Positions 11,057 to 50,461 are shown, numbered from the stretch's first letter. The stretch is DNA of 64,000 nt from Phycisphaerae bacterium (GCA_029260075.1 JAJDDY010000010.1:22968-86967), one strand, 5' to 3'. The notes: generated by a model not told the origin, from the sequence alone. Numbers and translations: made by a program.

Positions 11057-11092
11057 TGTGGCACCGGATTCCAGCCGGTGATCCCATTAGCG
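11057..11092 (-). repeat. Hairpin repeat family A, copy 1 (reverse orientation)
   Basis: The reverse complement reads cgctaatgggatcaccggctggaatccggtgccacac. It lies between convergent 3' ends. Confidence 0.85.
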
Positions 11093-11191
11093 ACGTTTCC
11101 TATCAACCGCCGGCGCGAAGCGAATCCGCCAACGCGATAGTCGAAGTCGACGCGCGATGTACTCATCGCGGAGACGTAAATGCCGGAGCTC

Positions 11192-11815
11192 TCAGCTTGG
11201 GCGAGCCGCCCGCCGTCTCAGTACAGCCGCACCGCCAAGACACATAAGCAGAAGCGTTGCGGGTTCTGGAACAGTGGCCAGACTGGAGAAGTCAGCGAAG
11301 ATCGAATTGCCCGAGTTTCCCTCTCGCCCCGGAATCGTAGTCTCGACCCGGACAGTCAGCTCCCCGTCGGCAAGATAGGTTTGCGGTACGTCAATAGCGA
11401 CGATGCTGGCTGAAGCGTCAGGAATGGACACGCCAAGAAACATGTCCGTCGGTTGTGGTACGCCGTCGAAAAACAGGTCCACCGTATCCAGCGGCGGCGT
11501 CCCCGGGAACGAATCGTGATCGAACAGACCAAGCGTCAGGATGACCGAGGAATCGCCCAACGTGGATGGATCGAAAATGTGCGTGTACTCAATCGCACCA
11601 AACGTACCGGGTCGATCGTCATGCCGGAACATGGTACCGTCGAACGGGTACACTTCCCCGATTCCGGCGTTGGCTGCCTCGGCGGACGAGGCGAAAGAAT
11701 ATCCATCCGCGAAATCCTGCTCGCCGAGCATATCCACAACGCCCGCTCGCGACCCAGCACCCATAGCCGCCACCGTCGCGACCATAATCAGTGACGTTCT
11801 AAGACACGAGTTCAC
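11192..11815 (-). CDS. PEP-CTERM sorting-domain secreted protein
   Basis: GTG start preceded by GGAGG. N-terminal signal MNSCLRTSLIMVATVAAMGAGSRA. C-terminal VPEPATLLLMCLGGAAVLRRRAARPS, i.e. PEP motif, TM segment and Arg cluster. Confidence 0.75.
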   Translation of the reverse strand: MNSCLRTSLIMVATVAAMGAGSRAGVVDMLGEQDFADGYSFASSAEAANAGIGEVYPFDGTMFRHDDRPGTFGAIEYTHIFDPSTLGDSSVILTLGLFDHDSFPGTPPLDTVDLFFDGVPQPTDMFLGVSIPDASASIVAIDVPQTYLADGELTVRVETTIPGREGNSGNSIFADFSSLATVPEPATLLLMCLGGAAVLRRRAARPS

Positions 11816-47031: not shown

Positions 47032-49563
47032 GTGAAACGTCGTGGAGATGGATCAAGCGTGTCCCACAGCGTCGAATGTCCAGATCGGTCGAAGCTCCAC
47101 GCCTACGCTGCGGACGGGCTGGCGCAAGACGCCGTGCCGGAGCTCGAAGCGCACCTGGCCGACTGCCCCGCCTGTATGACGCGCCTGAAGGAACTGGGTC
47201 GCGGAGCGATCAAGCCGGAAATCCCAGATTGCCAAGTGGTTCGGGAACTCGGACGGGGTCGATTCGGAGTGGTTTACAAGGCCTGGCGTCTGGGTCACAG
47301 GCCGCGCATCGTCGCATTGAAAGTGCTCACGCGACCGGGCGATATGGAGAAGAGCCGCTTCGATCGCGAAATCACGGTGCTCAAGAAGCTGGACTCGCCG
47401 GGTATCGTCAAGTGCATTGACTCGGGCGAAGCCGACGACGAAATGTACTTCGTCATGGACCTTGTTGATGGCAAGCACCTCGACGAATACTTTGTGTCCA
47501 CGGAACATGACCTGGCGCACAAACTCGAAGTCTTCGAGCGCATTTGCGTTGCCGTGGCTGACGCCCATGACTTGGGCGTGACGCATCGAGACCTCAAGCC
47601 ACGCAACATACTCGTCGACGCCGACGGCCAACCGCACATACTTGACTTCGGGATTTGCTCCGTCAACGCGATCGATTGGAGTAGCGACGTACGCGGTACG
47701 ATCACACATCCCGGTGACATCATCGGGACACTCCGGTACATGTCGCCGGAACAAGCATGGGGTGGTGCGGTCGGACGGATCGATGAACGCAGCGACATCT
47801 GGGCACTGGGCATCATTCTACACGAACTGGTAACCGACGGCGGATACCCCTACTCACTCAAGTCGACGCCGGACAAGCCCGTTCACGAAGCCGTCTTGGA
47901 TCGCATCCGCAAGGAACTGCCACAGTTGCCGAACCTCTCGTCCCTCCCCCGAGGACGCGACCTCGACGTGCTGTTGCAGCGATGCCTTACCTGGGAGACG
48001 GAGGACCGACTATCGTCCGCGCGTACGCTCGCAAACGACATCCGGCGCTACCTCGACGGACAGCCGATCACCACGAAATCGCTCTGGATACCGTACCAAC
48101 TGAAACGCTTGGCCGTCGGCGCTGCCACACGATCGCGCTGGCCATTTGCTGCCGTCTTTGTCGCTATGACCACAGCCACGCTCTGGTTGACTACGATGAT
48201 GTTCAGCGTGGGATGGCGGGTCGATCGCGTCGAGCATCAACCACTGGCGCAACTAGACGCCGGGCACGGTCACTCGACCAATCCGCGTGACGGGATCGTC
48301 ATTGTGGGCATTTCGGACGAGACCGTCAATGTGGTTCGAGAGCTGGCGCCGACGATCGGGCAGAGCGGCGTCACCAGCGCCATGCCAACCTGGCGCGGCG
48401 TTCACGCCCAACTCTTGCGTCGACTCGCACGGGTCCGCCCCGCAGGTGTTGCCTGGGATTTCTACTTCCGTTCTGAACAACCAGCGGACGCGGAATTGGC
48501 CGACGCCATCGAACACCTCGAACGTATCGGCGTTCCGGTCATCCTCGCCTCTGACACTTATGACCACGAAGCGCGACCGGAGCTGAGCCGGGGACTGTCT
48601 GATCGTCTCGGGTTCCGACTGCGACACGGCGCCATCGTCGCCCGCAACATGGTGCAGCGTCCGGGCGCGTTTGTGCTGGCGTATAAACCAAACGACAACC
48701 TGATCATACCAGCCCTTACGCTCACGACCGTAGCGGCTCTTCGTCACCCCGAGGGTTACCTGGACATCGAGTGGACAGGGAGGAACGCACATCTGGATGT
48801 GCTCTGCGAGATTCGGCCTGGAGCCTACTTGCGCGAACGCGATCGAATTGACTTAACCAAAGTTGTTGCTCAGAAACGTGACGATCTCTCCGTCCGCGCC
48901 GGCGACATGGTCGCGCTCAGTACAATGCGGCTTGAATCGCCGACGGAATGGTCGCGGCGGACCGTCGCCTATGAGCGCCTGTTGACGGCTGCGGACGAGG
49001 AACTTGAGACACAGATCGCGGGGAAACTCGTGATCGTGGGCGATCTACGCACGCCGCGTTTCGGGTTCCAGGGAGATCGCCACAGCGTCAAGTACGGCGC
49101 GACCGTCGAACCGTCCGTACCGGGATGCTATCTCGTGGGCGATGCCATCGCCGGTCTGCTCAACCGCAGCTACGTGCGTCTGGCGTCTCCGCTGGGTACG
49201 CCCAAGTACTTGTTGATGGTTGCGATGGCTGTGGTCGGGTTCCTCGTTCCGATTCGCCTTGCGACACTATCGCTTTGGGAACGGCGAGGCATGCGTCGCA
49301 CGCTACTTGTGGTGGTCGCGGTACTTTCTGGGATATGTTACGCCACCATCGTCTTGGCCGATGGGTTCGCTGCGATCCATGTGGGGATGGCGGGGTTCTG
49401 CTTGTTGACCGTGATGATCGGGTCGCTGCTCGTCGAGTTCACCCGCAACCGCCATCGCATTGCCGAGCGTAAGAGGCAATCGATGAACGGGCTAACGTTT
49501 GCGACCGAGGGAACCGTTACCCTACCGCTGAAGCGGAGGAAACGGCTCCAAGCAGCACGGTAA
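47032..49563 (+). CDS. Membrane sensor Ser/Thr protein kinase: N-terminal zf-HC2-like motif, Hanks kinase domain, CHASE2-like extracytoplasmic domain and C-terminal TM bundle
   Basis: zf-HC2-like LEAHLADCPAC. Kinase motifs GRGRFGVVYKA, VALKVL, HRDLKPRNILV, DFG and SPE. A TM segment, then VIVGISDETV...WRGVHAQLLRRLARVRPAGVAWDFYF (CHASE2-like), then three C-terminal TM segments. The start is uncertain (GTG at 47032 or 47059). Confidence 0.85.
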   Translation: MKRRGDGSSVSHSVECPDRSKLHAYAADGLAQDAVPELEAHLADCPACMTRLKELGRGAIKPEIPDCQVVRELGRGRFGVVYKAWRLGHRPRIVALKVLTRPGDMEKSRFDREITVLKKLDSPGIVKCIDSGEADDEMYFVMDLVDGKHLDEYFVSTEHDLAHKLEVFERICVAVADAHDLGVTHRDLKPRNILVDADGQPHILDFGICSVNAIDWSSDVRGTITHPGDIIGTLRYMSPEQAWGGAVGRIDERSDIWALGIILHELVTDGGYPYSLKSTPDKPVHEAVLDRIRKELPQLPNLSSLPRGRDLDVLLQRCLTWETEDRLSSARTLANDIRRYLDGQPITTKSLWIPYQLKRLAVGAATRSRWPFAAVFVAMTTATLWLTTMMFSVGWRVDRVEHQPLAQLDAGHGHSTNPRDGIVIVGISDETVNVVRELAPTIGQSGVTSAMPTWRGVHAQLLRRLARVRPAGVAWDFYFRSEQPADAELADAIEHLERIGVPVILASDTYDHEARPELSRGLSDRLGFRLRHGAIVARNMVQRPGAFVLAYKPNDNLIIPALTLTTVAALRHPEGYLDIEWTGRNAHLDVLCEIRPGAYLRERDRIDLTKVVAQKRDDLSVRAGDMVALSTMRLESPTEWSRRTVAYERLLTAADEELETQIAGKLVIVGDLRTPRFGFQGDRHSVKYGATVEPSVPGCYLVGDAIAGLLNRSYVRLASPLGTPKYLLMVAMAVVGFLVPIRLATLSLWERRGMRRTLLVVVAVLSGICYATIVLADGFAAIHVGMAGFCLLTVMIGSLLVEFTRNRHRIAERKRQSMNGLTFATEGTVTLPLKRRKRLQAAR

Positions 49564-50425
49564 CAACGACGGCGAACAACACCGCCCCCCTACCGACCCA
49601 CCGAACGGCTTGGTCCTCTCGAAAGGACAATGGATAGATTGGCATGGCCAACACTCCTGAATCGCTTCCCAAGATCGTGAGACCACGCGATGTCGTCACA
49701 CGACAGGATGGTGAAAAAGGTCTAGCGTCTTGTCAGCGTCTCGTTGAGGGGCTGCATCTGAACTGACTGGTCCACTTCTTCAGAGGTGGGGTGTTTCGAA
49801 TCCAACATCGATTCGCGTCTCCCACGGCTAAAGCGATGGGCCACATTGCCCTTCAATCGATCGCCGAAAAGAGCACTAACCTTCCGAGCCGAGCCTAATG
49901 AGCGGCACGAACCCGTCAAACAGATCGATGAACCAGTAGATGATCGTAGCCATCACACCGTCCTCCGTAAGCGGTCGCCGGAACGAGTCTATTTAGTCGG
50001 CGTATATGCTGTAGGCGACGATCGGCGCAGGAGTTGGTCGCGACACCGTCGCGTAGTGGCCCGAATTCCGGGTTAATACGTCTATCGTACAGGTGGGGCC
50101 AGCGGATAAGCACAAAATCAAAATTCTTGTACGCTTTTCGACAGCCGCTCACACATGACCAAGGTATTCTCGGACCCAGCAAGAGATCGGAACGCTAATT
50201 GAGGACGGCAGGCCCAGGCGGCGGCGTGGAGTAGTGCCGCATATTTGGCGTTCTTAGATCACGGTGGAAACCCTGGCATCGCTCCTGTGTCGCGCGCAAG
50301 TAGTCAGCAAACTGAAGGCGATGTGGTACACCACTCAACAGCCTGGTAAACACCGGTAGTATTCGAGCGCGCCGCTTCGAACCCACCCGAGACAACGGAC
50401 TGCGTTCCCGTCAAGAGGCGGAAAT

Positions 50426-50461
50426 CGCTAATCGATCACCGGCTGGAATCCGGTGCCACAC
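50426..50461 (+). repeat. Hairpin repeat family A, copy 7
   Basis: cgctaatcgatcaccggctggaatccggtgccacac, preceded by gtcaagaggcggaaat. Confidence 0.85.

Follow-up and report, generated by a model that had tools for sequence, protein, structure and literature searches.

A family of GTGG-tagged hairpins in a Phycisphaerae genome: probable REP elements spread in trans by a RayT transposase

A stretch of 64,000 nucleotides from a Phycisphaerae bacterium (GCA_029260075.1, JAJDDY010000010.1:22968-86967; hereafter the window, which means this whole 64-kb stretch) carries seven copies of a short hairpin element, named family A. The source names of the closest GcvT and RayT homologues likewise point to a planctomycete, probably of the Phycisphaerae. 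The element is very likely a family of repetitive extragenic palindromic (REP) sequences tagged with GT[A/G]G, that is, of non-autonomous hairpin elements of single-stranded DNA (ssDNA), spread in trans by an unlinked or lost REP-associated tyrosine transposase (RayT). An original prediction, made from the sequence alone, had listed a REP with an unlinked RayT among several options. This option is now supported by the features of canonical REPs found in the hairpin, by covariation of its stem across genomes, by RayT genes of other genomes that are bracketed by the same class of hairpin, and by the different REP that accompanies the window's own RayT. The other options, an uptake or protein-binding site and a structured RNA motif, are not borne out, as there is no match in Rfam, the orientation does not agree with transcription and every single copy is intergenic. 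As a REP, family A is a well-known kind of element; the finding is an ordinary one and does not alter what is understood about REPs.

The functional strand of family A is the reverse of the consensus that was originally given, and its core reads 5'-GTGG-CACCGGC-TTCCA-GCCGGTG-3'. In full, the reverse strand is 5'-GTGTGG-CACCGGC-TTCCA-GCCGGTG-ATCCATTAGC. The original prediction overlooked the nature of the conserved CCAC(A) tail of its consensus: reverse-complemented, the tail is the diagnostic GTGG tag, which adjoins the base of the 7-bp stem. The distance from tag to stem is 0 nt, and the tag is GTGG in six copies and GTAG in the fifth (the copies are numbered c1 to c7 along the window). The stem CACCGGC/GCCGGTG has 7 bp and encloses the loop TTCCA, or alternatively has 8 bp with a 3-nt loop, and its opening CACC contains three G/C among the first four bases. 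According to Quentin et al. (2018, PMC6006769), the tag of a canonical REP, GTAG or GTGG, stands 0-2 nt 5' of the hairpin; the base of the stem is fully paired over 7 nt or more, the loop has 2-5 nt, and three or more of the four bases that open the stem are G/C. Di Nocera et al. (PMC3733652) found that some families of the Planctomycetes-Verrucomicrobia-Chlamydiae (PVC) superphylum have GTGG instead of GTAG. Family A agrees with this kind of element in the tag, the stem and loop, the multicopy extragenic occurrence and the compensatory changes in the stem. It does not have the layout of a REPIN, a doublet of inverted REPs with a short spacer, for no inverted partner hairpin was found near any of the seven window copies. 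When folded as DNA, c6 reaches -10.3/-10.4 kcal/mol with z from -4.1 to -4.8, and none of 200 shuffles was as stable. In addition, pairing is possible between TGG in the tag and the conserved CCA in the ATCCA flank across the stem, which accounts for part of the 5' conservation noted earlier.

The core CACCGGC-TGGAA-GCCGGTG-CCACA, written on the strand of the original consensus, is present in exactly seven copies in the window, the chance expectation being 0. A search with the consensus GCTAATGGATCACCGGCTGGAAGCCGGTGCCACAC at up to three mismatches gave five sites, all on the plus strand (22347, 27232, 35327, 41548 and 50427), with 0 sites expected from 100 shuffles. A hairpin-only pattern revealed two further copies, at 11062 (consensus on the minus strand) and at 38695 (degenerate); it also matched once by chance at 27022, where there is no hairpin. 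An nhmmer profile built from the cores recovered the same seven copies at E ≤ 2e-4, and the next match had E = 0.31. The pattern searches, the profile and a map of Pfam-supported open reading frames (ORFs) thus confirm the seven intergenic hairpins that had been predicted. Their starts had been placed 1-2 nt off for c2, c6 and c7.

The hairpin is perfect in c3 (27232-27266, +), c4 (35327-35361, +) and c6 (41548-41582, +), the last of which equals the consensus and has a second hairpin, TTCGAAC..GTTCGAA, a short way downstream. Two copies keep their pairing by means of G·T. In c2 (22347-22381, +) the single A-C mismatch of the stem on the plus strand equals a G·T wobble on the GTGG strand, and folding gives -8.5 kcal/mol for the minus strand vs. 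-6.9 kcal/mol for the plus strand. The fifth copy, c5 (38695-38719, +; profile E = 1.7e-4), had been called degenerate. Its sequence does deviate, but all pairs survive: on the minus strand it reads GTAG-CACTGGT-TTCCA-GCCGGTG, with 7 of 7 pairs retained via two G·T wobbles and with the canonical tag GTAG. The loop-closing pair is mismatched in c7 (50427-50461, +) and likewise in c1 (11056-11091), which was found by the hairpin-only pattern and the profile. The latter copy has the consensus on the minus strand and therefore the GTGG-tagged strand on plus, with GTGG at 11058-11061 and CACCGGA-TTCCA-GCCGGTG at 11062-11080.

Several copies of family A have some 20-25 nt in common on each side. The extended unit around c2 (22259-22392, +) is homologous to that around c7 (50339-50472, +), with 75% identity across 134 nt; the 5' extension that had been reported for these two copies is thus real, but its length is 134 nt at this identity and not 16 nt. 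A weaker 3' extension, TTnTTCGA-CGGnCTGYTARG, is common to c2, c3, c4, c6 and c7. The homology of c2 and c7 together with the common flanks indicates that the unit repeated in the genome exceeds the 35-nt hairpin element. Among the Logan unitigs of the same organism (SRR15505517, SRR15505518), two (L001 and L002) have their 3' ends inside the c6 hairpin, and a Logan contig (L253) starts at its 5' side inside the c7 hairpin and has its other end in a tRNA-Ala gene (window positions 61754-61826). Breaks exactly inside the c6 and c7 hairpins are what a multicopy repeat causes in an assembly graph, and they independently show that the genome contains many copies of the sequence.

The same class of hairpin was searched for in one genome per species with the pattern CANNGGCTGGAAGCCNNTGCCAC, which fixed the loop and five of the seven stem pairs and left two middle stem positions free. 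The scan yielded at least 116 loci (147 instances), mostly in Planctomycetota and Verrucomicrobiota, and also in metagenome-assembled genomes (MAGs) labelled Desulfobaccales, Terriglobia, Lentisphaeria and others. The exact 23-nt core GTGG-CAnnGGC-TTCCA-GCCnnTG was met in MAGs labelled Planctomycetota, Verrucomicrobiota, Lentisphaeria, Desulfobacterota, Acidobacteriota, Bacteroidota and others. For the analysis of covariation, the 147 listed instances of the genome scan were combined with 7 from four viral contigs to give 154. Among the matches listed, to which all counts in this paragraph refer, both free positions are Watson-Crick complementary in 114 of the 154 instances, in seven combinations (CA/TG 37, CG/CG 32, TG/CA 20, CC/GG 17, TC/GA 6, TT/AA 1 and GC/GC 1). 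With each distinct sequence counted once, both free pairs show changes in either strand of the stem; the covariation score of 0.220, which compares with 0.083 in shuffles, was reached by 0 of 500 shuffles. Covariation in the stem, which the original prediction had named as a check, is therefore found across genomes. Wobbles of the type C·A on the CCAC strand, equal to G·T on the GTGG strand, number about 28, and the opposite kind about 1. The commonest imperfect variant, the CATAGGC/GCCTGTG subfamily (23 instances at 14 loci), also has its C·A on the CCAC strand. Since G·T is almost confined to the GTGG strand, it is this strand that is folded and selected. As for the arrangement of the copies, 146 clusters comprise 86 singletons, 42 inverted doublets with the tags outside, 5 doublets with the tags inside and 13 arrays. 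The tags-outside doublets are REPIN-like, and the partner loop is often ATCCT or ATCTT.

The hairpin class thus also occurs in tandem clusters and on contigs classed as viral. One locus (L117, about 7310-7520, -) has a head-to-tail REP array with at least seven units of about 30-31 nt, and two others (L034 and L112) have head-to-tail arrays with 57-nt units. Three REP copies, two of them adjacent, lie in the 4644-4699 region of an IMG/VR viral contig (L006).

A RayT gene is normally located between two inverted copies of its own REP. Metagenomes were scanned for the hairpin GTGGCANNGGC-N5-GCCNNTG (GTGGCAnnGGC-N5-GCCnnTG) followed 172-202 nt on by codons for P-[DEN]-H-x-H, a combination of which we would expect roughly two matches by chance according to our own estimate. 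At least 120 loci were obtained, and in 61 of those listed the spacing is an identical 180 nt. The listed loci contain 90 ORFs that are RayT homologues, of a clade referred to here as RayT-A; all 58 distinct RayT-A ORFs match NCBIfam NF047646, and in these the H-x-H (HUH), the Y and the N are invariant. The upstream REP is GTGGCACAGGCTTCCAGCCTGTG in 45 of the loci listed. An inverted REP (ending in CCAC; e.g., CACAGGCTGGAAGCCTGTGCCAC) follows within 90 nt past the stop, mostly at 0-20 nt, in 55 of the 70 complete genes listed. The stems recovered beside RayT-A are CACAGGC or CACGGGC, and the loop variants include GTCCC and GTCTC; in a Phycisphaerales MAG (L250) the RayT-A gene is likewise bracketed by GTGG-CACAGGC-GTCTC REPs. 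The homologues bear the names RayT or transposase in Terriglobia, Deltaproteobacteria, Elusimicrobia and Phycisphaerales. In other genomes, then, the hairpin class has the REP-rayT-REP arrangement of a REPtron. Three loci with the exact CACCGGC-TTCCA hairpin (L138, L151 and L162) turned out to have chance HUH-like codons and not RayT, and three with the stems CACTGGC or CATCGGC (L206, L208 and L221) are not RayT loci either. With the exact-hairpin matches being false, the pairing with RayT is established for the hairpin class and not for the identical sequence.

In four metagenome contigs (L185, L196, L219 and L246), the REP-rayT-REP module lies in frame within an ORF of about 1200 amino acids that has a DUF1156 and an N6/N4 DNA methylase domain. 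The REPs of these modules are translated as GGTGFQPV and HRQDACAT / GTGKMPVP, and there are two different insertion sites. One of the ORFs (L246) additionally encodes a GIY-YIG domain in frame. It is unusual for a methylase gene to contain a transposase gene in its own reading frame.

The window has a RayT gene of its own, RayT-B (15218-15772, -), whose motifs PDHLHCIW (HUH) and YIHLNPVKHG (Y) are intact. With NCBIfam NF047646 the protein attains 179 bits (the cut-off being 80), and it matches E. coli TnpA-REP (PDB 4ER8) with E = 2e-39. Pfam at E ≤ 0.001 gave no match for it, so that RayT-B would be missed by Pfam alone. In a phmmer search with the E. coli RayT sequence, the 15218-15772 ORF was the sole match among all window and locus ORFs, and tblastn with 61 RayT-A ORFs detected no second RayT in the window. 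RayT-B and the RayT-A clade are 25-31% identical. Around RayT-B there are REPs of another family, family B, with the sequence GTAG-GGCGGGC-TATT-GCCCGCC, at 15030-15053 (+), 15142-15165 (-, with the tag GCAG), 15182-15205 (+) and 15790-15813 (-). The segment 15030-15813 is a complete REPtron, in which RayT-B is bracketed by family B REPs with their tags outward, and family B is absent elsewhere in the 64 kb. On three contigs (L123, L124 and L126), homologues of RayT-B (60-87% identity) likewise have REPs of this type, GG[C/T]GGGC, on their flanks. Judged from its flanking REPs, RayT-B would serve family B and not family A. A comparison with the REPs that flank rayT genes had been proposed at the outset; its outcome is that RayT-B has a different REP family and that the RayT-A clade has hairpins of the family A type. 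One planctomycete genome thus contains two unrelated REP families, only one of which adjoins a RayT.

The lagging-strand template is a likely source of ssDNA for TnpA-REP. RayT (TnpA-REP, an HUH/Y1 transposase) recognises REPs as folded ssDNA, and it cuts and rejoins them. According to the summary of Ton-Hoang 2012 and Messing 2012 in PMC6006769, TnpA-REP binds the folded REP together with its GTAG foot in ssDNA, and then cleaves and rejoins nearby. The seven copies in the window may have been seeded in trans by an enzyme of the RayT-A clade encoded outside the 64 kb; alternatively, they may be relics of a lost RayT-A.

Several observations weigh against family A being such a trans-mobilised REP. 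The window has no RayT of the matching clade, so that for this organism the cognate RayT is an inferred one. None of the seven copies forms a doublet of the kind typical of actively spreading REPINs; all are singletons, with 20-90 nt of conserved flank. The three metagenome matches with exactly CACCGGC-TTCCA are not RayT, and the stems that do flank RayT-A are CACAGGC/CACGGGC. The conservation across phyla is in part ascertainment, given that the loop and most stem positions were preset in the search patterns. Finally, no presence/absence polymorphism could be shown. Downstream of gcvT, the site occupied by c6, the nearest relative (87% for GcvT) has a contig of 2.2 kb with a 110-nt flank that differs: it is without a copy and ends in a different GTGG hairpin. 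More distant gcvT relatives (70-73%) have different neighbours, and synteny is lost. The exact core in MAGs of many phyla, the dispersal in this genome with no linked RayT and the conserved flanks of up to about 90 nt bring up a variant of the interpretation, in which family A is more than a selfish REP: the hairpin class reflects a RayT-REP partnership that travels horizontally across phyla, or is retained for a host factor reading the nTCCn loop, and the window copies are a longer unit, trans-mobilised or domesticated. We regard this variant as unlikely.

The genomic positions of the seven copies fit the reading as REPs. All of them (7/7) lie between long Pfam-supported ORFs. As had been predicted, convergent, divergent and tandem contexts all occur, and we found three, one and three of them, respectively. 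Among the convergent copies, c1 lies between an ORF at 10243-10947(+) and a PEP-CTERM ORF at 11192-11815(-), c3 is 135 nt from the stop of a Rieske oxygenase gene (27097) and 10 nt from that of a MacB/FtsX gene (27276, -), and c4 is placed between the stops of an HDOD gene (35011) and an M14 peptidase gene (35401, -). The tandem copies are c2, 122 nt past the stop of a GT9 gene (22503-23960, -), c6, in the gcvT-prkA gap with the gcvT stop 76 nt upstream, and c7. The remaining copy, c5, lies in the gap between two divergent genes that start at 38397(-) and 39092(+). Six of the seven copies are downstream of one gene end or more. REPs favour regions downstream of genes, and many are plausibly transcribed (Di Nocera et al., PMC3733652); the contexts of family A fit this published preference. 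Copies of family A are thus mostly found just 3' of genes, and by analogy with E. coli REPs many are probably transcribed into hairpins of 3' untranslated regions, which would be a secondary effect.

The same positions could be explained by a hairpin that works for the host, such as a terminator, a stabiliser of mRNA 3' ends or a site for a host protein, and that is maintained by selection. E. coli REPs do stabilise upstream mRNA and bind gyrase, IHF and Pol I. Along with these known roles, the six copies downstream of a gene end, the TTTTT after c6 and the plausible transcription of many REPs (Di Nocera et al., PMC3733652) speak in favour of a host function. However, the T-run is present after c6 only (1 of 7 copies), as had been noticed originally, where it begins 6 nt beyond the stem, and none of the seven copies was called in a terminator scan. 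The orientation relative to the upstream gene is mixed as well: by nearest upstream gene, the transcript would contain the GTGG form of c2, c3 and c4 and the CCAC form of c6 and c7, and c5 is situated in a divergent promoter region. The lone T-run, the mixed orientation and the lack of a terminator-scan call uphold the earlier view that a simple terminator role is unlikely. No Rfam family corresponds to the element, either: at the gathering threshold the whole window gave tRNA-Ala only, and permissive scans around c3 and c6 gave nothing on the element beyond noise of E ≥ 2. Moreover, the hairpin class brackets RayT genes, which is not expected of a pure host signal. Taken together, we consider a host function quite unlikely. 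It is very unlikely, too, that family A is mobilised in trans by RayT-B. The RayT-B gene looks intact, and it is family A that is dispersed in the 64 kb and family B that occurs only beside the gene. Yet the two families differ in tag (GTGG/GTAG), stem (CACCGGC/GGCGGGC) and loop (TTCCA/TATT), the RayT-B homologues on the three contigs are flanked solely by the GGCGGGC/GGTGGGC type, and hairpins of the family A type flank a RayT clade that is just 25-31% identical.

The original prediction had emphasised a strand bias, with six of the seven copies on the plus strand regardless of gene orientation. A polar motif that is read on double-stranded or incoming DNA, for instance an uptake sequence or a signal of the Chi or KOPS kind, would explain it. 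The count is correct, but the two-sided binomial test gives p = 0.125, which is not beyond chance. In other genomes the class mostly takes the form of inverted pairs or of singletons, and neighbouring singletons make 4 concordant vs. 12 discordant pairs among the matches listed. Polar motifs are short, non-palindromic and mostly intragenic, whereas family A consists of covarying hairpins that are exclusively intergenic, and the GC skew of the window is too flat to indicate the direction of replication. An explanation of this kind is extremely unlikely. A highly improbable one is that the copies are the remnant ends of a mobile element unrelated to RayT, be it the subterminal hairpin of an IS200/IS605 derivative (palindrome-associated transposable element, PATE) or a miniature inverted-repeat transposable element (MITE). 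Consistent with it, c2 and c7 have about 134 nt in common, flanks of 20-25 nt recur in several copies so that the unit exceeds a bare REP, and another palindromic repeat family is found within about 110 nt of four of the seven copies. On the other hand, the copies are not bordered by terminal inverted repeats or target duplications, and the window has no IS200/IS605 tnpA or tnpB, the E. coli RayT query having matched only 15218-15772. The GT[AG]G tag with a hairpin is the hallmark of RayT, and there is a direct association between this class and RayT genes.

Several other repeats and features were observed in the window. The palindromic repeat just mentioned, family C, has arms of about 24 nt, CCGAGCCGCG[AC]CCGT[ACG]AGG[AG]AGCG, which form inverted doublets about 85 nt long at 25574-25655, 35236-35305, 38500-38581 and 62030-62099; single arms are present at 10985-11003, 22445-22463 and 31079-31097. 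It has no short hairpin tagged with GT[AG]G. Its proximity to four of the seven family A copies indicates that repeats of different kinds accumulate together between the same genes. Upstream of an EamA gene, at 38897-38993 and 39031-39066, there are 5-6 units of a tandem repeat with a 17-nt period, GATTCACGGCACAGCG[AG], which generates a spurious ORF (38658-39086), and two further units at 31013-31065 stand beside a family C arm.

Directly upstream of c3 there is a duplication (27070-27236): the final 28 nt of the Rieske oxygenase gene, together with 32 nt downstream of it, recur 107 nt on (60 nt, 92%). Between the duplicated parts there is a tRNA-like sequence (27110-27187, -), which ARAGORN calls tRNA-Leu(GAG) and which in Rfam matches the tRNA-Sec model below gathering (23.5 bits, E = 0.021). 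It may be a decayed tRNA or an integration scar. The first 10 kb of the window are filled by a single ORF of 2952 amino acids (1410-10268, +) with internal repeats spaced about 2.3 kb apart (D11, D15). The 5' part of the GT9 ORF next to c2 contains G-rich repeats with an 8-nt period (GGGACGGA / GGGACTCA ...) at 23369-23496, which probably encode a low-complexity linker.

The results have some practical consequences. Small ORFs with the peptides ..HRLEAGAT.. or ..GWKPVP.. are translated REPs; the small ORFs within family A had rightly been considered spurious, and they should not be called genes in annotation. Assemblies of these genomes break at copies of the hairpin. The work also provides a concrete pairing of REP and RayT. 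The hairpin class concerned is frequent in the PVC superphylum, Acidobacteriota and Desulfobacterota, groups in which such systems have received very little study. A literature search found no description of the family with the TTCCA loop or of its pairing with RayT, and the core sequence itself brought up nothing but primers and codons that have no relation to it.

By sequence, the closest catalogued family is GTAG-19 of Opitutus terrae, for which Di Nocera et al. (2013, PMC3733652) list the intragenic peptides HGRDARAT, WHGRPAR, GTGVPPV and TGGTPVP. Back-translation of these peptides suggests the consensus GTGG-CACGGGC-GTCCC-GCCCGTG. With this consensus, GTAG-19 would resemble family A in the GTGG tag, the 7-bp stem frame CAnnGGC and the 5-nt loop nTCCn, and would differ from it in the loop (GTCCC vs. 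TTCCA) and in the middle pairs (CG/CG vs. CC/GG). The GTAG-19 elements are described there as often intragenic and dimeric, unlike family A in the window. The consensus PDHVH ... WQDE ... YIRNNP of RayT-A fits the motif row of TnpA-REP subclass 2.7 ([ND]HVH, WQ, YI[LR][NQ]NP; Quentin et al. 2018, PMC6006769), a similarity that is one of motifs only. Subclass 2.7 has canonical GT[AG]G REP flanks and is described in the same paper as small and mainly cyanobacterial, whereas the names of the RayT-A homologues come from Terriglobia, Deltaproteobacteria, Phycisphaerales and Elusimicrobia.

Rho-independent terminators are similar to family A in that they are G+C-rich hairpins downstream of genes, but six of the seven family A copies have no T-run and their orientation is independent of the upstream gene. 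The E. coli REP/TnpA-REP system (4ER8) and the Pseudomonas REPINs, like family A, have the GT[A/G]G tag at the foot of a G+C-rich hairpin. REP/REPIN-RAYT systems are likewise multicopy, extragenic and mostly downstream of genes, with subfamilies that show compensatory stem changes, and they share with the class of family A a transposase placed between two inverted REPs, the RayT having HUH and Y...N motifs. Differences from these systems also exist. REPINs are doublets, whereas the family A copies of the window are all singletons with conserved flanks; the E. coli REP is bulged, whereas the stem of family A is short, with a perfect 7 bp and a 5-nt loop; and between the RayT-A clade and the window's RayT-B, which is E. 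coli-like, the identity is no more than 25-31%. The E. coli and Pseudomonas systems have proteobacterial hosts, whereas the host of family A is a planctomycete.

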